DNA from: Candidatus Heimdallarchaeota archaeon
GTDB lineage: Archaea > Asgardarchaeota > Heimdallarchaeia > Heimdallarchaeales > Heimdallarchaeaceae
Direction of reading: 5' to 3'
NCBI GenBank assembly: GCA_018238545.1
Contig: JABCTC010000038.1
Coordinates: forward strand, 1-32,058
DNA length: 32,058 nt
Of this stretch, positions 11,158 through 23,863 are shown piece by piece (position 1 is the first letter of the stretch; each line of letters starts with the position of its first letter). The position numbers were made by a program, and so were the translations under genes. Under the pieces are notes generated by a model that made no database searches, had not been told where the DNA came from, and saw only the letters and a list, made by a program, of their open reading frames with translations.

Positions 11158-11257
11158 AATATAATACCTTCATTCTGCCACTCTTTTTTAAAAATTGTTG
11201 TTGGATACTAATCAATCTAATGGGTACGTTTTTATTTATTGCTTTTTTTCTTTCCTC

Positions 11258-11737
11258 ATGAGCACTGGAAAGATTATTGTGCAATTACATAACTTCAGCA
11301 GTATCAATCTTTGTCGAGAATTTGCTAAAATTTCTTTAGGTTTAGGAGCAAGAGATATAATTTTCACTAAAGCTGGTGGAACTGGTGCCACCACAGGTGT
11401 TCCCATTGCACAAAAGTTGGCACATGCAAAGAAAGCTAATGTTCTGTATCTTCAAGAAATCGAAGATGCCATTGAGCTTATCTCACCAGATGAAGTTTAT
11501 CTTTTCATAAAACGACCTTTCTCAAAAGAAACTTATAACCCCACTAACATCGTTGAAAGTTATAAGGAAGGTAAAACCATTCTACTCATCTTTGGTGGGG
11601 CCGATCCTGGAATAACAAAAAGAGAGTTAGAATTAGGGGTTCCAGTTTATTTCAACAAGACTAACGAGTTAGGCTGTTTAGGAGAAGTTACTTTGGCACT
11701 TTATTTATTAAGAAATCTAATTGAAGATGAAGATTAA
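11258..11737 (+). CDS. DUF2122-like protein (SPOUT-fold putative RNA methyltransferase; often labelled 'RecB-family nuclease')
   Basis: VQLHNFSS, FTKAGG...GVPIAQKLA, IEDAIEL, IFGGADPGITKRELELG and terminal knot-like ELGCLG motifs. ATG at 11258 is preferred over TTG at 11195. Confidence 0.7.
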   Translation: MSTGKIIVQLHNFSSINLCREFAKISLGLGARDIIFTKAGGTGATTGVPIAQKLAHAKKANVLYLQEIEDAIELISPDEVYLFIKRPFSKETYNPTNIVESYKEGKTILLIFGGADPGITKRELELGVPVYFNKTNELGCLGEVTLALYLLRNLIEDED

Positions 11738-12270
11738 ATTACATCTTCTTCTTGAATGATTAATCTTACTAGATTTTTGAATGCTAGTTCCGCATTAGTT
11801 CCGTTTTTAGCAGAGGTAAAAAGAAATTCTGCATTTGTGTGATCTTCAACTATTTCTTTCATGTCATCTTCTGTTACTTGAAGTTCTGGTATATCACATT
11901 TGTTTGCTAAGAAAATAATGGGTTTCACCCCTACAACTTCAATAAATGACTCAACCCAAGATTTGAGATTTTCATAAGTAGTCATATTTGTTGCATCACA
12001 GACCGCAAGTGCACCTTTACTCCCAAAATAATACTTACTTCTAACTTTTTTGAACACTTCTTGACCCCCTACATCCCAAATTGCTAATGTTACTAAATAA
12101 TTAAGATATTCTACATCCTTCTTCATGATTGTTGTTCCTAGAGTAATTTGATAGGAAGGATCAAACATATTTGTAACAAAACGCCTAACTAATGATGTTT
12201 TACCTACTCTTCCATCACCAATAAGTACTATTTTACTTGTAGAATGTATTTTCTTAGACACCAATATCAC
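11734..12270 (-). CDS. Rab-like small GTPase
   Basis: GDGRVGKT, TLG, WDVGGQ, YYFGS, NKCD and TSAK; GTG start uncertain; no prenylation motif. Confidence 0.9.
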   Translation of the reverse strand: MILVSKKIHSTSKIVLIGDGRVGKTSLVRRFVTNMFDPSYQITLGTTIMKKDVEYLNYLVTLAIWDVGGQEVFKKVRSKYYFGSKGALAVCDATNMTTYENLKSWVESFIEVVGVKPIIFLANKCDIPELQVTEDDMKEIVEDHTNAEFLFTSAKNGTNAELAFKNLVRLIIQEEDVI

Positions 12271-13228: not shown

Positions 13229-15574
13229 CTATGGTATAATATGAAAGTCTAGTTGCATGTTATTCATAAGTGATACAATTTTCTTACCTTCTTCAGAACT
13301 TAGAGGAATACTGTTAATCTGGCGTATTCTAATTTCGTCTTTTCCTTCATCCTTTATCTTTTTGAAATAATCTTGTATGGTACTGAAGATAAACATCAGA
13401 TTGTGGTCATCATTAAACTCAGGTAAAATTTCGATGTTGTTTATGTATTCAACTTTCTGTTGTTTCTTGAAATGAAGAGCAGCGATAGGTTCTTCATTTC
13501 TTAGAATTAGTTCTGCGAAGTCTGTGGGCATAGATCGGAGGAAGAAAGATCTTAGTTTGAAACGTTTAAGTAGATATTCTTTGTATAATAGTATTAATGG
13601 ATCATTTCTTGGTAAATATACAAAAACCGTTCCACTTTTATCGGTTGGTTCTTCACTTTTCTGATAAACATAAGCTGTTATAGACTCCTCTATAACCTTT
13701 GTTGTAAACTGTACATCACTCTCTTCTTCAAGAAATCTTCCAGTTCGAACGTTCTTTGAAGCAATTAGCTCCTTAAGATATACTTCCAATTGAGTGTTAG
13801 AAAGACCAGTTAGGTTAGCTAATTGTCTAATCGAGAGTGGTAAGTTAGAGGACAATATCCTATAAATAATTTCTAACCATGCATCTCTTTGAGAATCAAC
13901 AGATTTTGGTTTTGAAGTACTCAAGAATTTAGAAACAGATAACCATATTACCTGGTTTGAGATATTTTTGGTTTGAATAACTTTACATGTAGTTTCTAGA
14001 CGGTGCAAAATAGACATTAGCACCCTATCAGATAGATTCAACAGACTTTTCAGTTGTTTGAAAGTTACTTTTTCCTTTTGTTTAATGGTGTTAAGAGCTC
14101 TTTCTTCTAGTACTCCTACGTTTCTTGTAGGACGAAGTTTTGCATAAAAAGGATAATCCTCAGAATTAATTAATCCTCTAGGAAAACTACTATACTTTCC
14201 TCGAACTATTTTTCTGTCAATTTGCAGCTCATTCAGAATGTTTTCTTTTCCTGTAGAGATACGGATCAGTAGTGATTCATACGATAGAGGTATGCCAATA
14301 AAGGATAAGCTTCTAAGTAAATCTGCTTTTGTAACAATCTGTTTGTGTTTAGTAAGGAATTGGTTATCAATAAGTAAAGGAAAGACATCTTGAATTGAAA
14401 TAGATTCTTTACTTCCTTCAGGTTTGGTCAATTTTGAACGATGATAAGTTAATCCTGAAGTTCTTTGAACATAACCACGCTGTTTTAGTGCTTCAACAAA
14501 GGTACGAGACTGATTTTCTAGCAGTTCAGATTGCATTTTTGGAAAAACAAGGATTTTTCCTTTATTCTCTGAGAATTCTTGGATTTTGTTTTGGATTTTA
14601 TCTTCTAGAGGGATGAATGCTGAATTTTTGACGAGATTAATCACGTGCAAATTATCACCAATTACTTTGTAATCAAAGGTACAGACAGGTTTACCCGAAA
14701 CAAACACAATTTCCTTTTGAATGTCTTGAAGTACTGTAAAATCAGCTGAAGACCAATAAACTGAATATGGATCTGTGGTCGGAAGAATCTCAAATTGATA
14801 TGATTTTTCCTTTTTTTCTTTTTCAGAGAACTCTTCCAAAAACTCTAGTTCGTCTGTGGCTAGAAAGCCTTCATAACTGGAATTTTCAATGAAATGTCCC
14901 CTAACTATCTTTTTACTCTCATATAGTTCAATAATACTTGTACTCACTCTACTTCCAGATAAATTAAGAATGCGCATAATCTGTGGTACAGTTATTGGAC
15001 CAAAACTCTTTATGATTTTGTAGATTAGTTCTTTGATGGCAGATGATTGGCTTCTGGATTCCTTAGTAAGTAGCAAGTCAGAACTGTAAATAGTCCAACG
15101 AGTACCATCGTAAAACATGAACACTTGAAAATTTAATCTTAGTTCAGAAAGTATATCCATTACTTCTTCTTTCTTTAATTTGAACTGTTCGATAATTCTT
15201 TGTCTTGTAGATGAACCATGTTCTCTGATGAATTCCAATACATTTTTTGTTTGTGGTTTCTTATAATCTATTTCCTCTGATAGATTGCTGTAATAGAGTA
15301 TTTCAAGATTTTCTCTTCCAACATATGCTAGTTTTCCAGAGATAAAAGGTGCCTGTATGAGATGTTTGTTTTTTATTAAAGAAGGAATTAAGGTGTGAGA
15401 AAAAGTTCGCATCCTAGCAAATAATGATTCGGGATCTTGAAACAGAACAATATTATTCAATATTGATATCGCATGACCGTAATTGACACCCTTGAATTCA
15501 GTGGATAAATTCTGTTTCTCAGATAGGTAAAGAGATAGTTCTTCAAGGTTTAATGAGATGTGTGACACAGACAT
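13229..15574 (-). CDS. Protein made of two tandem AlkZ/YcaQ(HTH_42)-like winged-helix modules; putative Lhr partner
   Basis: Two roughly 390-aa units, each with SLxxR, winged-helix signatures (HGSSTRQRI, FGPITVPQI, LPLSIRQL), I/VRG/TG(H/R)F, LPxxDP (LPTTDP, LPRNDP) and a beta-rich tail; similar to the Lhr C-terminal repeats. Confidence 0.7.
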   Translation of the reverse strand: MSVSHISLNLEELSLYLSEKQNLSTEFKGVNYGHAISILNNIVLFQDPESLFARMRTFSHTLIPSLIKNKHLIQAPFISGKLAYVGRENLEILYYSNLSEEIDYKKPQTKNVLEFIREHGSSTRQRIIEQFKLKKEEVMDILSELRLNFQVFMFYDGTRWTIYSSDLLLTKESRSQSSAIKELIYKIIKSFGPITVPQIMRILNLSGSRVSTSIIELYESKKIVRGHFIENSSYEGFLATDELEFLEEFSEKEKKEKSYQFEILPTTDPYSVYWSSADFTVLQDIQKEIVFVSGKPVCTFDYKVIGDNLHVINLVKNSAFIPLEDKIQNKIQEFSENKGKILVFPKMQSELLENQSRTFVEALKQRGYVQRTSGLTYHRSKLTKPEGSKESISIQDVFPLLIDNQFLTKHKQIVTKADLLRSLSFIGIPLSYESLLIRISTGKENILNELQIDRKIVRGKYSSFPRGLINSEDYPFYAKLRPTRNVGVLEERALNTIKQKEKVTFKQLKSLLNLSDRVLMSILHRLETTCKVIQTKNISNQVIWLSVSKFLSTSKPKSVDSQRDAWLEIIYRILSSNLPLSIRQLANLTGLSNTQLEVYLKELIASKNVRTGRFLEEESDVQFTTKVIEESITAYVYQKSEEPTDKSGTVFVYLPRNDPLILLYKEYLLKRFKLRSFFLRSMPTDFAELILRNEEPIAALHFKKQQKVEYINNIEILPEFNDDHNLMFIFSTIQDYFKKIKDEGKDEIRIRQINSIPLSSEEGKKIVSLMNNMQLDFHIIP

Positions 15575-18500
15575 TTATTTCACCAAAATATTTGTATTAA
15601 TGCCGTTTACTTTTTTAATGGTAACTAACGGAGCATTACCACTATGTGCTGGGGAAATGGTTTCTAAAGCATTGATAATATAGTTAAAAGACCCCTCAGT
15701 ATGAACCCATGGAGCTATATTTAGATTCTTAACAATAAGCTGCTTCTCATCATGGGACTCAATTTTGCATTGGGCGGCTAATTCCTGGTTTAGCAGAATT
15801 AAATAGTTATCTCCGGAGATATCGAACCTTTCAGGTAAGTCATTTCTTAGCAAAGAATGAGCTACATCTGTTGGATGAATAACATAGAATCGTTTTCTAT
15901 CTTTTTCCGAGGAATAATCCCTCGAAGCTTCAAACTGTTTCTCGAGCATAATTAAATCGTCATAATTCTCTAAAGTAATATAGTAAAAACTCAAATTATC
16001 CTCTATAAACCTTCCACCGAATATTTCTTCCTCTTCAACTAAAGTGGATAATATTTCTTTGATTTTTATCTTTGTTAAAATAACAGGGATAAATGCGTGT
16101 TCAACTATCTGGTTCTCAGAGGACATCCCTAAGCTGTAAACTATATCTCTTACATACCTTCTTTTAATGACTGTTAAGTCATCATCAAATTCTGGGATAA
16201 ATTTTGAAATATCCCAATATTCTTGAGGGTGATATGTAGTACTAATTGACTTTACTCCAACAAGCATATTTGTTTCTAATAGGCGTAAGGAGGATTTCAG
16301 CGCTGTTCCAGCTCCTGTCCACTTATGGGATAAATCTTGAATATTAGAAGTTCCTTTTGTTATAAGTTTCAAGAGTTCCTCATGTTCTGTTTTGAGTTTT
16401 CTTCTTTTCCTCAAACCACTTTTTCTGTAGCGAGCAAATATTAAAGAGTATAATTTGTCACCTTGACAAAGAATCTTCTTTTCCTCTAATAATTTGTTAA
16501 CTAAAAAGGCAATTATTGCGTTCATTGTTTCAGGAAATCTTGTGATAATCGCTTCAAAACTTAACACTCCAAAATGGTTTATTAAGGATAATAAACTGGT
16601 TTCATTTAATGCTGGAGAATCTTTTCTTAACCAGATTTTATCCATAACATATTTAGATATAATATTTTTTGGAAAAATTCGGGTTACTGTATCTCCACCA
16701 ACCAAAGTATCTTGAATCAAAGTAAAGCCTGTTTTAATCAAGGAATCTTTGATGAATTTATTCGCTGTTGATAGAACTGATTTTCCATTTATATCTTCTA
16801 TTTGTAAACTGAGCACACGATGAATCTTTCGCGTATAAGAGACAAGTTCTGAGGCTATTTTTTGAAGCAGAAGGAAATTGTAAGCAACTATGTCATCGAG
16901 TTGCAAATTATAGATCTGTAGATACTTTCCACGATGAAGCTTATACTCAACTGAACCAACAACCTCACCATCCAGAAGTATAGGATCTATTTTCCCTTCT
17001 CCATAAACATCCCGAATATGAAGTCTTAAACCTAATTTTGTAAATGGATCAGAACGTGGAAGGATAAGTGTTTTCTCATCTTCATGTAGTGAGAGGTTGA
17101 TGAAATCTGCTTTTAGTTTAGAGATAGTTTCAAAACGCTTAGAAGTCAAATAATAATTGGTTTCTCTTGTTGTGAGCTTCTTTTCGATTATTTTCTTTTG
17201 TTTAATTAAATCACGAATATGTTTCTCAACATCACTATATTTGAATCCAGAGATGTGAGTAAGCTCTATCAATGATACTGGACCTAACGACTCAATTAGT
17301 TTATTCAAAATGAATTGGATACTTTTGTCATAATCAGGTAATTTATCCAATGTGAAATATCTGGAAGAAATATCATAAACATTCGGTATAAATTGCTTTG
17401 GTAGAAATGAATCAATAGCAATAGACTTTCTCACAAGATGAAGTGTTTTGTCAAGAATCATAATACTTTCCTGTACGATGTCCTCATCAAGATCAATATA
17501 TTCAACCAACTCTCTTCTTGTTAATGGTCCATACTTTTGAAGTGTATTGAGAACTTTCTCCTCAACTTTAGATAATTCGAACGTTTCTCTGTATGCAACA
17601 TAATAATAGGGGAAATACGCTCTACTCACATATGATAATCGATTATGACTAAATCTTCCTTGAATGATTTCATTTTTTTCCACAAGTTCTCTTACCCAAT
17701 CAATATCATAATCTTTAATTCTAAACGCCAAGGAACTCAAATCTGCAATAGAACCAAAGTCATCTAATAGATACAATATACTTTCTTTTCCAATAAGAGC
17801 CTGTTTAAAATAAGTATCAACAGTGAAATAATAGTGAATGAAATTTAGTTCTTCTGAAGTTAATAATAGTGAACCTTGTTTTCGATTACTCAAATTCCTT
17901 AGTAATTCTCTATCTTCAAGTCTGATATATTGAGGTTCTAGTGTAGCGGCAATAATTTGCCCTTTCAGAATCCTATTCTTTTGCTCTAATTCCATAAGAG
18001 TTCTTGATATTTTCTCTTGGTCTAGAAGAAGGTATTCAACTATATCACTTGTAGATGAGGGACCGTTAATTTTTAGATAATTTAAAACAATTTTCTCCAA
18101 ACAAACTTCAGGATCTAGTTTTCGGGCTTTAATTCTAAACGATTCTGGAACAAAATCTTCTATTGAAATATAATTCCAAGTTGTTTTTCCTTTGTATGTC
18201 TCGAAGTCTATCCGAGTTATTAGCATTGCTCGCTCGAGTTTTTCAAGATTTAACTTAATTTCCTGTTCTTGAAGATCAAGTTCCTCCGTGATTTTCAATA
18301 GCGAAATTGGATATTTTTCTTTTATTAAATCAAGAATTTTTTTATCTTTTTCTGAAAGATCAATTGATTTTAAGTAAATGTTCCAATAGATGGGAAAATC
18401 CTCTAAAGGTATAGTTCTCTGCTCTGTTTGCGAGATGTGAATCTCCATGAACTCTTTATTGTTATGGAGAGCAAAAACCCACAATTTAATTTGCTTGGGA

Positions 18501-21301
18501 TCAGAAATACAGCGGTGATATATACTAGGAGGTTTTTTATCTATTGTTCTTATTGGAGAAATTGCTTTGATAGCATGTCTCAGCTGTTTAAGAGAAGAGA
18601 TAGGGAGTTCTTCATTTCTGTAACTACGATTGTTAAAGATGCTATCTACTAATTCCTTCCTAAAAAGTATCTCTTTTGTGCCTTCCTTTCCAAAAACCTT
18701 GGACAGAACCTGTTGGTGTAATTCTCTAAGTAAAGCACTTCTATCAGAAATCTTAACGATATCAGCGACACCTAACAAAACGATGCCATGTGCAAAAGGG
18801 CTAGGAATATCTGTTAAAGGAGCTATTTTGTATGTATATTCTCCTTTTTCAAGCTTCTTAATAACGTTGTAAGAATTTTCTAGATCCATGTAATCCCGCA
18901 AGATTTCTCGATATGTTTCTTTAATGACACAGAAAGAATCTTGTGTTTTCAGAGTTGGGAACAACCTTCGTGCATACATGGTTTGCCTAGAAACAGGAAT
19001 GTATTTGTTACCGCTCCTTCTTAAGATCATAAAAGCTCTATTTGCAACATGTCTAAATCGTGTTTGGAAAAGTTCAGTGTTTATGATAGCTTGTTTGACA
19101 AGATTTTCCAAATCGTCTGAAGAAATCAAGGTTGGAATATTTGAGGTATCATAGATTTTGCCAGTTGGTAGTATCAACAAGAAACCGTTATCATTTACAG
19201 CTGAAGCTACATCAGCATCAAGTTCTTTGCCAATGGAAAAAGCAAATGCTCGTGCAAGAGCATCATTAACCCTCCTTCCGAAGTAAGCATGAAAAACTAT
19301 GGTCATTCTTCCTTGAGGGTCTAAAAATGACTCTATTAGTAGAGATTTTTCGTTTGGAATAATATTCAAGAAGAGTTGCTGTTCCTTCACATAATCAACA
19401 ATCGTTTTTGCAATTATCTCATCAACTTTAAATGAGGCTTGAATCCATTCCATTGTTTCTTTGGTTTTCTCTTTCTGAATTCTCTGAGCAACAACATCAA
19501 TAAATCTGCCAATTTGTTGAGATAATTCAAATGATCTAGGTAGTTCTTCTCCAACCCAGTTAGGTATAGTTGGTCTTCTTCCGAATGACTCGGAAACTAC
19601 GACACGTGATCCAACTGTTCGTTTGAACTGGTAAGAATGACTTCCTAATACAAAAACATCTCCAGGAGTAAGTCTTTCAACAAACTTTTCTGAAAGAACA
19701 CCTATTCGAGTCCTATAAGTTTCAAGTTCAACCCTGTAATTTGAATTTTCAGGAATTGTACCGAGATTAGTGTAGAATATTAACCGAGAATTTCTTTTCT
19801 TTCCAAACGCTTTTTCTTTATGATCATACCAAATTTTTCGGTAAACTTTCTGCTCTTCAATATCTAGATTATAGCCACCCAAATACTCTAACACATTAAT
19901 ATAATCAACGAAACTAAGCGTTCTGTAATTATATGAACGTTTAATCATCGTGTAAGCTTCATCTACATTCCATCTTTTTGTTATTGACATCCCAACTATA
20001 AACTGAGCAAGAACATCAAGACAGTTTTGAGGAATCTGAACTTTGTCCAACACATGGCTATAAGCACTTTTGGTCAGCACTGCACATTCTATAGCATCAT
20101 CTCTACCAGTTACAAGGAGTCTTCCGCGTGCAATTCTATCAAGAGCATGACCACTACGACCTACTCGTTGAAGATACTTTGCAACTGTTTTAGGAGATCC
20201 TATCTGTGAGACTAACTCAACGCTACCTATATCTATCCCCAGTTCTAAAGAAGTTGAAGTTACAGCTGCAAGTAATTCATTATTTTTCAACCTATCTTCA
20301 ACATCTAACCTGATTTCTCTCGATAAACTAGAATGGTGAACAGCTATAAGAGGTGCATATTCATCTCCAAGAAACTCTTTGAGTTTGAAAGCAACACTTT
20401 CAGCTCCTTTTCTCGTGTTTGTGAAAATAATTGATGTTTCATGGTCTAAAGTAAGATCAGCTAGAACGGAGTATATCCCTTCTTGAACCATAACATAGGG
20501 AGTATGAAGTAGATCTTTCACCGGGCTTATTACTTCAAGATCCATTTTTCTTTGTGGGGGAAGATTAGCTATGTAGCAATCGTTCTCTACACCATTATCA
20601 TCTCTTCCAACAAGAAAACGAGCTATTTCTTCAATAGGTGCTTGTGTTGCAGATAATCCAATCTTAGTAAACTTTTTCTCAACAAGTTGAGTCTGAAGAT
20701 ATTCTAAACATAAAGATAAGAAAACACCTCTCTTGTTTGAACTAACTTCGTGAATTTCATCTAGTATAACCCAACGTACACTTTTCAGATGTTGGGAGAA
20801 CTTTGGAGAAGTTAAAATTAACCCTAAGCTCTCAGGAGTTGTAATTAATATATGAGGAGGAGTCTTCAACATCTTCACACGCTGAGATTGAGGAGTATCT
20901 CCTGTCCTAACATCAACTCTTATTTTAGGCACAACAATATTGTTTGCAGCTGCAAGATCTTGAATTCCTTGTAAAGGTTCTTCCAAATTTTTTCTTATGT
21001 CATTCCCTAAAGCTTTGAGAGGGGAAATATATAGGACATATATCTGATCCTTCAGTTTCCCTTTGGTAGACTCGATGTAAAGCTCGTTAATTGCAGCAAG
21101 AAAAGCAGCAAAGGTTTTTCCTGAACCAGTTGAGCTGAAAATGAGTGTGTTCTTCTGTTCGTGTATAAGTGGAATAGAATACAATTGTGGAGGTGTAAAT
21201 CCTGCAGGGAATCTAGAGGTAAACCAATCTTTTATTTCCTCAGCTAGAAAAGAGAAAATGGAATCAGCTGTAGATGGGTTATCTAGATAATGCAGAGTCA
21301 T
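15575..21301 (-). CDS. lhr: Large Lhr-family SF2 helicase with a ~1040-aa C-terminal extension of HTH_42/AlkZ-like repeats
   Basis: TGSGKT, YISPLKAL, RTGDT, TTPESL, DEIH, GLSAT, FTNTR, HHSSL, SLELGIDIG, QRVGRSGH and the Lhr-specific LDVLAQ, GTIP, PNWVGE, GRRVNDAL and PSPFA motifs. The core ends near aa 870. Confidence 0.93.
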   Translation of the reverse strand: MTLHYLDNPSTADSIFSFLAEEIKDWFTSRFPAGFTPPQLYSIPLIHEQKNTLIFSSTGSGKTFAAFLAAINELYIESTKGKLKDQIYVLYISPLKALGNDIRKNLEEPLQGIQDLAAANNIVVPKIRVDVRTGDTPQSQRVKMLKTPPHILITTPESLGLILTSPKFSQHLKSVRWVILDEIHEVSSNKRGVFLSLCLEYLQTQLVEKKFTKIGLSATQAPIEEIARFLVGRDDNGVENDCYIANLPPQRKMDLEVISPVKDLLHTPYVMVQEGIYSVLADLTLDHETSIIFTNTRKGAESVAFKLKEFLGDEYAPLIAVHHSSLSREIRLDVEDRLKNNELLAAVTSTSLELGIDIGSVELVSQIGSPKTVAKYLQRVGRSGHALDRIARGRLLVTGRDDAIECAVLTKSAYSHVLDKVQIPQNCLDVLAQFIVGMSITKRWNVDEAYTMIKRSYNYRTLSFVDYINVLEYLGGYNLDIEEQKVYRKIWYDHKEKAFGKKRNSRLIFYTNLGTIPENSNYRVELETYRTRIGVLSEKFVERLTPGDVFVLGSHSYQFKRTVGSRVVVSESFGRRPTIPNWVGEELPRSFELSQQIGRFIDVVAQRIQKEKTKETMEWIQASFKVDEIIAKTIVDYVKEQQLFLNIIPNEKSLLIESFLDPQGRMTIVFHAYFGRRVNDALARAFAFSIGKELDADVASAVNDNGFLLILPTGKIYDTSNIPTLISSDDLENLVKQAIINTELFQTRFRHVANRAFMILRRSGNKYIPVSRQTMYARRLFPTLKTQDSFCVIKETYREILRDYMDLENSYNVIKKLEKGEYTYKIAPLTDIPSPFAHGIVLLGVADIVKISDRSALLRELHQQVLSKVFGKEGTKEILFRKELVDSIFNNRSYRNEELPISSLKQLRHAIKAISPIRTIDKKPPSIYHRCISDPKQIKLWVFALHNNKEFMEIHISQTEQRTIPLEDFPIYWNIYLKSIDLSEKDKKILDLIKEKYPISLLKITEELDLQEQEIKLNLEKLERAMLITRIDFETYKGKTTWNYISIEDFVPESFRIKARKLDPEVCLEKIVLNYLKINGPSSTSDIVEYLLLDQEKISRTLMELEQKNRILKGQIIAATLEPQYIRLEDRELLRNLSNRKQGSLLLTSEELNFIHYYFTVDTYFKQALIGKESILYLLDDFGSIADLSSLAFRIKDYDIDWVRELVEKNEIIQGRFSHNRLSYVSRAYFPYYYVAYRETFELSKVEEKVLNTLQKYGPLTRRELVEYIDLDEDIVQESIMILDKTLHLVRKSIAIDSFLPKQFIPNVYDISSRYFTLDKLPDYDKSIQFILNKLIESLGPVSLIELTHISGFKYSDVEKHIRDLIKQKKIIEKKLTTRETNYYLTSKRFETISKLKADFINLSLHEDEKTLILPRSDPFTKLGLRLHIRDVYGEGKIDPILLDGEVVGSVEYKLHRGKYLQIYNLQLDDIVAYNFLLLQKIASELVSYTRKIHRVLSLQIEDINGKSVLSTANKFIKDSLIKTGFTLIQDTLVGGDTVTRIFPKNIISKYVMDKIWLRKDSPALNETSLLSLINHFGVLSFEAIITRFPETMNAIIAFLVNKLLEEKKILCQGDKLYSLIFARYRKSGLRKRRKLKTEHEELLKLITKGTSNIQDLSHKWTGAGTALKSSLRLLETNMLVGVKSISTTYHPQEYWDISKFIPEFDDDLTVIKRRYVRDIVYSLGMSSENQIVEHAFIPVILTKIKIKEILSTLVEEEEIFGGRFIEDNLSFYYITLENYDDLIMLEKQFEASRDYSSEKDRKRFYVIHPTDVAHSLLRNDLPERFDISGDNYLILLNQELAAQCKIESHDEKQLIVKNLNIAPWVHTEGSFNYIINALETISPAHSGNAPLVTIKKVNGINTNILVK

Positions 21302-22004: not shown

Positions 22005-23291
22005 ATGACTACACCTAGTGACTCTACTGATAGTGACATGATGCCGGATGAAATAATTGATAGGTTTATGTACCATCCATCGCTTTTACATCGCTGGTTA
22101 GAGCAATTAGGGATTAATTATACAATTGATCTGCTTTCTACTTTACGAAAACCTAACGATTCAATGTGGGTACAAGTAAATAAAAGCAAAATAGATTTTG
22201 ATTCTTTGCTAGACATTTTTGAAGATATGGAATTCAAAGCCAATAAACACCCATTGTTTGATGATTTTATTCAAGTTAAAATTGGTTCAAATGAATTTGA
22301 TAGTACTGAAAAAGTTCTACCAATGATTAAAGTTGATAGAGAATCAACAACAAGCATAGCACTAGGTAAAGATGTTAATTCAACAAATGTTACCGAAGTA
22401 AATCAGTTTTTTGCAGGTGATACTGTAAGAATTATAGATTTTATTGGAAATATAATTGCTGTTGGTATTGCAGAAATTCATAGTACAGAAGTTAAAGACA
22501 AAACTGTCAGAGTAGCAGCGAAAAACATCAAATCACTAGGTGTTACTCCCCAACTAACGGAATTGATGGTATATCGAAGAGGGTATTTTAACATCCTCAC
22601 TCCAACTCAAGCATTTAGTGTAAAATCAACCCATTTGAAAGCTGAAGATAATATATTAGTTATGACAGGAGATAAAGGGGATGTAGCTAGTTATATTGCT
22701 GAATTAACTAACAATAATTGCCCCATCACTGTCATTGTTAATAACAAGCTTCAACTAAAAGCAACAAGAAGACAAGTTGAAAGAACAAAGAGTAAAGCAA
22801 TAAGAATCATAAGACGTCCATTTTTAAAATACTTAAACGATCATCAAGAAATAAAATATAGTGTTGTATTTCTAGAACCACAGAATTCCAGAACTGCTAT
22901 TATGCCCACATTCTCATCTAATTTAGGAGTCACAAAGCTAGACACATTTGCTACAGCTCAAAAGGAAGTAATCACCAATTTATATCGTTGTCTCTACGAT
23001 TCCGCAACTATCACTTACTTCACTCATTCGGTTGATATAAGTGAAAATGAAGGGGTATACAATCATGCTTTGAGTAAGGCATACTACGAAGATCACAAAT
23101 TTACTGAAGAAATCAGACTGTTACAAAAGAAAAAGAAAGTGTCTTACAGAGAACTCCCAGAAGAAACCTATTTAGACTATACTTTCGAGCATAAAAATTC
23201 CTCTATTTATATTGACCCCGTGAAAATAAATAACTCTGGTGGGTATATAGCCAAGTTCAAGTTTGGAAAAATAGACAAGAATAATGATTGA
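22005..23291 (+). CDS. NSUN6/RsmB-like PUA-domain RNA m5C methyltransferase homolog, apparently catalytically degenerate
   Basis: N-terminal VQVN region, PUA domain (IKVD...IALGKDV...FFAGDTV...IAVGIA), and a MTase skeleton in which LEPQNS replaces DAPCS and YFTHSV...ENEGV replaces YSTCS...ENE. Confidence 0.75.
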   Translation: MTTPSDSTDSDMMPDEIIDRFMYHPSLLHRWLEQLGINYTIDLLSTLRKPNDSMWVQVNKSKIDFDSLLDIFEDMEFKANKHPLFDDFIQVKIGSNEFDSTEKVLPMIKVDRESTTSIALGKDVNSTNVTEVNQFFAGDTVRIIDFIGNIIAVGIAEIHSTEVKDKTVRVAAKNIKSLGVTPQLTELMVYRRGYFNILTPTQAFSVKSTHLKAEDNILVMTGDKGDVASYIAELTNNNCPITVIVNNKLQLKATRRQVERTKSKAIRIIRRPFLKYLNDHQEIKYSVVFLEPQNSRTAIMPTFSSNLGVTKLDTFATAQKEVITNLYRCLYDSATITYFTHSVDISENEGVYNHALSKAYYEDHKFTEEIRLLQKKKKVSYRELPEETYLDYTFEHKNSSIYIDPVKINNSGGYIAKFKFGKIDKNND

Positions 23292-23293
23292 TT

Positions 23294-23863
23294 CTATCCC
23301 ATCATATGGGAATCAAGTTCATTAACTAACCAGATAAAAGCTTCTTTGATACCTTTGCCATGCAATATACTGGTGTCAAAAACAGCAAAAGTTCTATCTT
23401 TTAAATCAAGATGCAAACCCAACATCTGAATAAGTAGAGGAGCTTCCACAGCGCCAGGAAGATCTTGTTTATTTGCCATGATTAAAGTAGGAACATTTTC
23501 CATGTAAGGATTATTAAAAACATGAGTCTTAAGAACATCACGTGCTTCAGGAAGACGCTCAATATCAGCAGCATCAATAACAAAGATAACTGCAGAACAG
23601 CCGGGATAGTGGGCCTCCCACAGGAATCTAAAGTGACTTTGTCCAGCCACATCTATGGCAGTTATTGTCCATCCTTCGAACTCGAATGATTCAATATTTT
23701 GTCCTATTGTTGGTGTAAGATTTTCAGCGAATTTCCCAAACCTCATAAATCTTGTCAAAGTAGTTTTTCCAGCAGCATCTAAACCCAAAATCAGGATTTT
23801 TGCCTTTTGTTCTCTCTTAAGCTTTGTTCTTAACCAAGAGGAAAATGATCCAAACATACTCAT
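23294..23863 (-). CDS. Arf/Sar1-like small GTPase with an N-terminal amphipathic helix
   Basis: ILILGLDAAGKTT, PTIGQNIE, DVAGQ..FRFLW, IFVIDAAD.ERL.EAR, ANKQDLPGA and GKGIKEAFIWL. Confidence 0.92.
   Translation of the reverse strand: MSMFGSFSSWLRTKLKREQKAKILILGLDAAGKTTLTRFMRFGKFAENLTPTIGQNIESFEFEGWTITAIDVAGQSHFRFLWEAHYPGCSAVIFVIDAADIERLPEARDVLKTHVFNNPYMENVPTLIMANKQDLPGAVEAPLLIQMLGLHLDLKDRTFAVFDTSILHGKGIKEAFIWLVNELDSHMMG

Follow-up and report, generated by a model that had tools for sequence, protein, structure and literature searches.

An Lhr helicase of Heimdallarchaeia and its adjacent two-unit partner protein: AlkZ-like folds without glycosylase motifs and a predicted helix-donating interface

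In the window (the whole analysed stretch of 32,058 nucleotides (nt), contig JABCTC010000038.1 of assembly GCA_018238545.1 from Candidatus Heimdallarchaeota archaeon), two abutting genes encode an Lhr helicase with a long C-terminal tail and a second protein, here called the partner, which consists of two AlkZ-like units. The pair is a real, conserved feature. Modelling suggests that Lhr and the partner probably form a physical heterodimer, in which the first unit of the partner would supply a helix that the last unit of the Lhr tail has lost. A long-tailed helicase of this type is for the most part known already, whereas no account of the two-unit partner or of its predicted helix-donating docking was found in the literature searched. 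Likewise, the supposition of an earlier sequence-only reading that the pair is undescribed agrees with the absence of any account of it in that literature, a search that most subscription papers lie outside of.

The gene pair

Lhr is encoded by the minus-strand open reading frame (ORF) 21301-15575 (1908 amino acids, aa). The partner ORF (15574-13229, minus strand, 781 aa) begins with the base directly after the lhr stop. The ORFs are as the sequence-only reading described them, and its unit borders agree with ours (nt 18688/17890/16696/15574/14434). The features are as follows:

18689..21301, minus strand: Lhr helicase core, aa 1-871, with RecA1, RecA2, winged helix and domain 4 (NF010338; Pfam DEAD, Helicase_C, WH_Lhr and DEAD_assoc; motifs intact)
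17891..18688, minus strand: unit 1, aa 872-1137, a winged-helix unit without the C-terminal alpha/beta domain (hhalign; equals the N-terminal subdomain of the bacterial Lhr C-terminal domain)
16697..17890, minus strand: unit 2, aa 1138-1535, a complete AlkZ/YcaQ-fold unit (structure comparison with AlkX and AlkZ; alignment to YcaQ)
15575..16696, minus strand: unit 3, aa 1536-1908, AlkZ-like, with no terminal helix and hairpin at its end (matches unit 2 in hhalign, E 6e-18)
15736-15581, minus strand: predicted partner docking site on unit 3, aa 1856-1907 (complex model)
15572..15586, minus strand: gene junction, with a Shine-Dalgarno-like GGTGA in the last lhr codons, then TAA-ATG (junctions of 36 loci; sequence)
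14435..15574, minus strand: partner unit 4, aa 1-380, an AlkZ-fold unit (structure comparison with AlkX)
14521-14435, minus strand: unit 4 terminal helix and hairpin, aa 352-380, with predicted docking on Lhr unit 3 (complex model)
13229..14434, minus strand: partner unit 5, aa 381-781, an AlkZ-fold unit (structure comparison with AlkZ)

In an NCBIfam profile search the core (aa 9-873) scored 1053 bits against NF010338, for which the cut-off is 849, and PF08494 and PF19306 were above cut-off in the same protein. The helicase motifs TGSGKT (position 58, Walker A), DEIH (181), SAT (217) and QRVGRSGH (378, motif VI) are present, and W582 aligns with the coupling tryptophan W620 of E.coli Lhr. The protein may be of the aLhr2 type: its core groups with long Thermoplasmata-type Lhrs (in a tree without reference aLhr1 and aLhr2 rows), it has an HTH_42-like tail and it has no cysteine-rich end. 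By analogy with the family, it would be a 3'-to-5' translocase or helicase (PMC8053096). The PADLOC models for DpdJ and BrxHI also match the core, which could point to an anti-phage helicase system like these two. However, the matches cover only the shared Lhr core, the NCBIfam DpdJ model NF041067 gives 38.7 where 800 is the cut-off, housekeeping genes (GatD/E, MEMO1, small GTPases) surround the pair in conserved order, and the pair is near-universal in the family. This makes an anti-phage system highly improbable, and a defence role was rejected.

In the window and in most of the family the two genes abut in frame as TAA-ATG (36 loci tabulated). Such a junction would be compatible with both ORFs being translated into one protein of about 2690 aa by stop-codon readthrough, or with a single gene split by sequencing error. 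In relatives, however, the gap between lhr and the partner gene is -22, -8, -4, -1, +1, +4, +43, +55 or +65 bases and the frame offset varies, while GGTGA, within the final codons of lhr, shortly precedes the start of the partner gene, and many independent assemblies have the same stop. The varied frames and the GGTGA thus indicate translational coupling of two proteins and not readthrough, and the single-protein explanation is largely refuted. A scan with bacterial promoter and terminator models, which do not suit archaea, gave no more than chance-level results.

Five related units with an AlkZ-like fold

With hhalign all ten unit pairs were homologous (probability 97.1-99.7%, E 7.5e-11 to 2.6e-25), whereas the helicase-core controls reached a probability of at most 0.7% against the units. 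Hence the five related units of the sequence-only reading are confirmed as internal homologues. Those of its motifs that were searched for were found as quoted, in Lhr (SIYHR 926, SLAFR 1190, AIITR 1584, LPRSDP 1414, HPTDV 1809) as well as in the partner (SLFAR 50, SLLIR 434, LPTTDP 264, LPRNDP 654). The best-conserved unit of the Lhr tail is unit 2.

Sequence searches did not lead to the fold. The PF06224 gathering score of 25.9 was missed, with 19.3 and 24.7 bits, and PDB searches, whether with a single protein or with a profile, returned isolated winged-helix matches but neither AlkZ nor 7LHL, so that a fold comparison was needed. The AlphaFold2 models of the Lhr tail and of the partner had a mean predicted local distance difference test score (pLDDT) of 84.5 and 85.0 and a predicted template modelling score (pTM) of 0.71 and 0.52, respectively. 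For both, the top Foldseek matches were AlkZ, AlkX/YcaQ and the C-terminal domain (CTD) of M.smegmatis Lhr. In structure comparison (VIA), unit 2 matched AlkX with Z 27.8 (root mean square deviation, rmsd, 3.0; 334 residues aligned) and AlkZ with Z 23.6, unit 4 matched AlkX with Z 28.9 (rmsd 3.4, 327 aligned), and unit 5 matched AlkZ with Z 23.9 (rmsd 4.7, 328 aligned). The next unrelated structures had a Z of at most 11. The AlkZ/YcaQ layout that had been read from the sequence is therefore borne out for units 2, 4 and 5. Unit 3 is probably AlkZ-like as well, as judged by profile homology and predicted secondary structure only. Unit 1 is partial: according to predicted secondary structure it has no beta-rich C-terminal domain, as the sequence-only reading had noticed, and unit 3 turned out to be cut short as well.

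Units 1 and 2 together (model residues 9-661) superpose on residues 893-1503 of 7LHL with Z 25.4 (rmsd 7.6, 532 aligned). They span the whole bacterial Lhr-CTD, so two of the five units are known architecture (PMC8053096). Furthermore, Lhrs with three units, 1660-1950 aa long, are frequent among Thermoplasmata and also occur commonly in other archaea; a long HTH_42 tail of archaeal aLhr2 is already on record, in a paper that also hints at such proteins (PMC8301817). Of the multiplied array proposed as novel, the two-unit partner is the distinctive part, and for the array within the helicase the proposal went too far.

Comparison with known proteins places the pair as follows. Bacterial full-length Lhr (bLhr-HTH; M.smegmatis, 1507 aa, PDB 7LHL/5V9X; E.coli, 1538 aa) has the same core motifs, and like the pair it is without the AlkZ QxQ. 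In contrast to it, the helicase here has one extra unit, two more are found in a separate gene, a helix-donation heterodimer is predicted in place of a homotetramer, and the catalytic D1536 of E.coli Lhr is not conserved. The archaeal aLhr2 proteins with a long C-terminal region (Methanomassiliicoccales, Thermoplasmatales) share the core and the HTH_42-like tail, and their units 1 and 2 match by position, but their third units end differently; the aLhr2 paper reports one additional HTH_42 domain and no partner (PMC8301817). At L075, the one locus of this kind that was read, lhr is not followed by a partner gene. AlkZ, YcaQ and AlkX (HTH_42, PF06224; PDB 5UUJ, 9ZD6) have in common with the units the three winged helices, the C-terminal beta domain (Z 23.6-28.9) and LPxxDP. 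Yet these enzymes are single-unit proteins, whereas the units here are tandem modules with 11-14% identity to them, lie below the Pfam cut-off, have no QxQ or QxD, and apparently have the DNA-binding loop deleted.

As a separate observation, the C-terminal domain of unit 2 (window 16697-17090) superposes on GNAT acetyltransferases with Z of about 10 over 117 residues. This likeness is not mentioned in the AlkZ or Lhr literature searched, and by eye no acetyl-CoA motif was seen in these GNAT-like C-terminal domains.

Absence of glycosylase motifs

AlkZ and YcaQ/AlkX require a QxQ or QxD motif for activity (PMC9040887, PMC13303869). None of the five units in the window has the QxQ, HxQ or QxD motif of the first winged helix. 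Among relatives, [QH]-hydrophobic-[QD] occurred in the expected region in 0/32 sequences for each of units 1, 2 and 3, in 3/31 for unit 4 and in 2/31 for unit 5, and the loop that carries QxQ in AlkZ-type enzymes is shortened in the units. Direct hhalign of the units to E.coli YcaQ was not significant; the motifs were therefore mapped through bridging single-unit proteins and by weak alignments. In one of these (probability 18%, E 0.0013) unit 2 has a gap of 15 residues opposite the YcaQ DNA-binding loop; in AlkX the beta domain carries such a loop (PMC13303869). In E.coli Lhr, D1536 is needed for uracil excision (PMC10953399). This residue aligns with the non-conserved T376 in unit 4 and with a non-acidic residue in unit 2, and the segment is missing in unit 3.

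With no unit carrying QxQ or QxD, a glycosylase role is unlikely, and going by these motifs the five units are probably non-catalytic. The cross-link glycosylase that the sequence-only reading had in mind is thus not supported. A different possibility is that at least one unit is an active DNA glycosylase with a new chemistry, and that the array scans for several lesion types as the helicase moves. The clearly AlkZ/AlkX-like fold would suit this, as would the LPxxDP aspartate, which is retained in units 2, 4 and 5 and matches LSPFDP of YcaQ. Moreover, uracil glycosylase activity is known for the E.coli Lhr-CTD, which has no QxQ (PMC10953399), and inactivity is therefore not proved by missing motifs. 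However, besides the near-complete lack of the motif, the shortened loop, the deletion seen in the weak YcaQ alignment and the loss of the D1536 position, the net charge is about 0 in units 1-4; unit 5, with +10, is the only clearly basic one. We therefore consider an active glycosylase among the five units unlikely.

Elsewhere in the same genome (G000:C77:39468-40496) there is a stand-alone YcaQ-like glycosylase of 407 aa with an intact QID. Such single-unit YcaQ-like genes are patchy among relatives (23/45).

Complementary ends and a predicted heterodimer

The end of unit 2 is made up of a strand, an NG turn, a helix that contains LxxxGF, and a hairpin. The match of unit 3 to it stops just past the NG turn, after which 8-24 residues follow; the LxxxG[FY] helix motif is found there in none of the 35 paired loci. 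A looser pattern for the terminal helix with G[FY] is present in unit 4 at 35/35 loci, albeit without the NG turn, and in unit 2 at 33/34. The same pairing of a truncated unit 3 with a helix-bearing partner occurs at the distant locus L099, where Lhr has three units and the partner a single one. In the single-chain Asgard Lhrs of four units, the third unit retains its own terminal helix.

The complex was modelled with Lhr unit 3 and aa 1-628 of the partner. It reached an ipSAE of 0.78, the best of three controls had 0.00, the runs shared at least 85% of their contacts, and pLDDT did not fall below 82. In calibration, the mark for this score was reached by 58/80 solved complexes and by 2/110 mismatched pairs, counts that are only rough for alignments such as these. 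The two-protein complex suggested by the sequence-only reading is thus predicted by modelling. The best-defined contacts are those of partner residues 355-368 on Lhr residues 1860-1903, which in the alignment correspond to the strand, the helix and the NG turn bordering on the missing helix. In addition, the third winged helix of unit 5 (aa 561-608) contacts unit 3 in the model. Residues at the interface are conserved, with E1880 in 33/35, L363 in 30/35, R366 in 32/35 and G367 in 32/35. In the model of the partner monomer, aa 341-390 have a pLDDT of 39-61, i. e. the donated segment is of low confidence when modelled alone.

Distribution and origin

A partner profile search, with the alignment as query, covered 45 other genomes of the order and 36 of the class's other orders. 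Matches were obtained in all 29 other genomes of the family, in 1/1 and 10/12 genomes of two sister families (for one of the ten the match is to the Lhr tail only) and in 0/3 of a fourth family of the order. The raw tally is 40/45; with the window genome included and the tail-only match removed, the partner is present in 40/46 genomes of the order. It was found in none of the 36 genomes of other Heimdallarchaeia orders, and no two-unit partner was found in five long-Lhr genomes of other classes. A spread of the pair across Asgard is not supported, since among the genomes searched the two-unit partner is confined to one order of Heimdallarchaeia. The idea of an Asgard complex therefore holds as to its host but is too wide in range.

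Conservation of the partner next to lhr, which the sequence-only reading had made a point of, is found at 35 loci where both genes are assembled, with the partner at -22 to +65 bases behind lhr; two distant metagenomic loci are included. Within the family the partner is intact and of full length in 28/29 genomes, at 42-91% identity, with the remaining copy at a contig edge, and it is kept across three families. In a quick tree all partner-bearing Lhr cores form one clade (Shimodaira-Hasegawa-like approximate likelihood ratio test, SH-aLRT, 99) inside a clade made up of long Lhrs from Asgard archaea; this points to a single origin.

In other Asgard lineages the Lhr tail has two truncated units, or a single chain of about 2350 aa carries four units. 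The four-unit proteins (2344-2352 aa; G083-G085 and L071; probably Atabeyarchaeia) have a core that groups with the Heimdall proteins (Asgard clade, SH-aLRT 99). Their array likewise runs beyond unit 3, but it is one chain with the unit 3 helix kept, and no separate partner was found. We found no description of them in the literature searched.

As to the origin of units 4 and 5, units 2, 3, 4 and 5 each formed their own group in the unit tree, a quick search in which the deep branches were not resolved. That the partner is a duplicate of units 2 and 3 was considered and is not established; the alignment is colinear at 22% identity. The best scores of unit 5 are those against free proteins of a single unit. 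Among the free proteins that resemble it most is a single-unit AlkZ-like protein without QxQ, the gene of which (L096:4745-5905) lies beside MbtH, condensation and ABC-transporter genes.

Further variants were observed at individual loci. At L099:1286-8119 a metallophosphoesterase, a three-unit Lhr of 1900 aa and the single-unit partner of 372 aa are encoded in a row; the related L102 has no partner and its Lhr end is shorter. In one sister-family genus (L039:9161-14173, L040:9483-14471, L043:9180-14054) unit 3 is short by about 80-110 residues, i. e. roughly one winged helix, with the partner and the docking end retained despite this loss. At L045:7186-9407 the partner gene is broken into 529 and 207 aa beside a run of N, probably an assembly artefact. 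Three single-chain Lhrs of 2344-2352 aa with four AlkZ-like units stem from complete genomes, probably of Atabeyarchaeia (L077:4396-11454, L079:4246-11283, L071:363-7397); in L071 an HD-domain gene comes after lhr and an Nre repair gene is nearby. Finally, the tail of the Asgard Lhrs at L082:3190-10731, L083:4141-9579 and L080:5102-9328 consists of two truncated unit-1-like units, and in L082 and L083 the helicase core is split by insertions of about 570 aa, probably inteins.

Possible function

The function of the Lhr-CTD, and the reason why M.smegmatis needs a tetramer for crosslink repair, are still debated (PMC8053096, PMC9841417, PMC9040887). A possible interpretation of our findings is that the two genes give rise to a heterodimer by coupled translation, and that a helicase for the repair of crosslinks or stalled forks is extended in it by a non-catalytic scaffold. 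Taken as a whole, we give this reading an even chance. Lhr would then be an ATP-driven 3'-to-5' translocase or helicase on single-stranded DNA that tracks at forks or R-loops, joined with the partner in a probable 1:1 ratio. Fold complementation would come about when the helix (aa 352-366) and the hairpin of unit 4 fill the place lost from Lhr unit 3, with unit 5 packed beside it. The tail and the partner would thereby provide five AlkZ-fold modules, four of them complete and one partial, that have no catalytic motifs and may serve as a scaffold or as a platform for nucleic acid or substrate, as the bacterial Lhr tail may do. The complex could take part in the resolution of interstrand crosslinks, R-loops or stalled forks, and base excision would fall to other enzymes, for example the YcaQ-type protein of the same genome. 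A role in DNA repair as such is fairly likely.

In M.smegmatis the Lhr-CTD and the tetramer are required for resistance to mitomycin C and cisplatin but not for unwinding in vitro (PMC9841417). The predicted complex would unite four complete modules, the number that the M.smegmatis homotetramer has and needs for crosslink repair. One may therefore speculate that a homo-oligomeric helicase scaffold was turned into a heterodimer with one motor: a motor-less paralogue would complete the C-terminal fold of the helicase in trans and rebuild the bacterial four-module assembly, and the fused, 3+1 and 3+2 versions in Asgard would be natural stages. We put this forward as a tentative idea that is rather doubtful at present.

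Several points speak against the heterodimeric scaffold. The complex model contains parts of the two proteins and not the whole assembly, and its good score may stem from the position of the helix, which is that of the own helix in solved single-chain Lhr tails (fold memory). This helix is also absent from YcaQ and AlkX, which stop before it, and the heterodimer may therefore not be obligate. In the predicted interface the contacts are made by the C-terminal domains and are not the winged-helix contacts of the main M.smegmatis interface; as it differs in this way, and as the unit counts of other Asgard Lhrs differ, the four-module parallel is suggestive only. That E.coli Lhr-CTD acts as a uracil glycosylase, discussed above, also belongs here. 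Furthermore, the 35 loci are kin and not independent events, and two three-unit Lhrs with a truncated unit 3 are followed by an unrelated gene: in G044 (68% complete) the partner was not found, and L102 has no adjacent one.

These two Lhrs and a third of three units at L075, which likewise has no partner behind lhr, would also fit a partner that is an accessory and can be dispensed with, or a regulator without a motor that covers the end of Lhr and blocks homo-oligomerisation, with the dependence of the two proteins having arisen neutrally after duplication. Complementary loss is the outcome expected of duplication followed by degeneration, and Asgard lineages do vary in unit number. Yet the partner, as described above, is intact and of full length in nearly the whole family and has been kept in three families. 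Such an accessory thus seems improbable to us.

It could also be that the complex acts mainly on RNA or RNA:DNA hybrids, i. e. in rRNA or transcript processing or R-loop removal, and not on damaged DNA. RNA:DNA hybrids are the preferred substrate of bacterial Lhrs (PMC8053096), Lhr proteins have been proposed to act in RNA processing (PMC8301817), and an RsmB/PUA-domain gene is near lhr in Heimdallarchaeaceae and Asgardarchaeum loci. However, this neighbour was not seen in sister-family loci, and the genetics of long Lhrs point to crosslink or oxidative damage (PMC9841417, PMC10953399). We hence attach little probability to RNA as the main substrate.

If the heterodimeric scaffold applies, a separable motor-less subunit with a defined docking helix would be a natural way to separate the scaffold from the motor. 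The pair, from a lineage close to eukaryotes, would also be a clean example of how complementary loss turns paralogues into a heteromer. Since the helicase is of a known type, the partner occurs in one order only and there is no sign of a link to eukaryotic proteins, we consider the finding to be of moderate importance.

Neighbouring genes

An RsmB/F-like methyltransferase with a PUA domain is encoded at window 22005-23291, with weak family scores. This gene adjoins lhr across Heimdallarchaeaceae and is two genes off in the Asgardarchaeum loci L072, L101 and L102. A RecB-family nuclease of the DUF2122 type lies at window 11195-11737. Small GTPases, which belong to the eukaryotic-signature proteins of Asgard archaea, flank the locus in conserved order, with a Ras-family member at 11734-12270 and an Arf-family member at 23294-23863.

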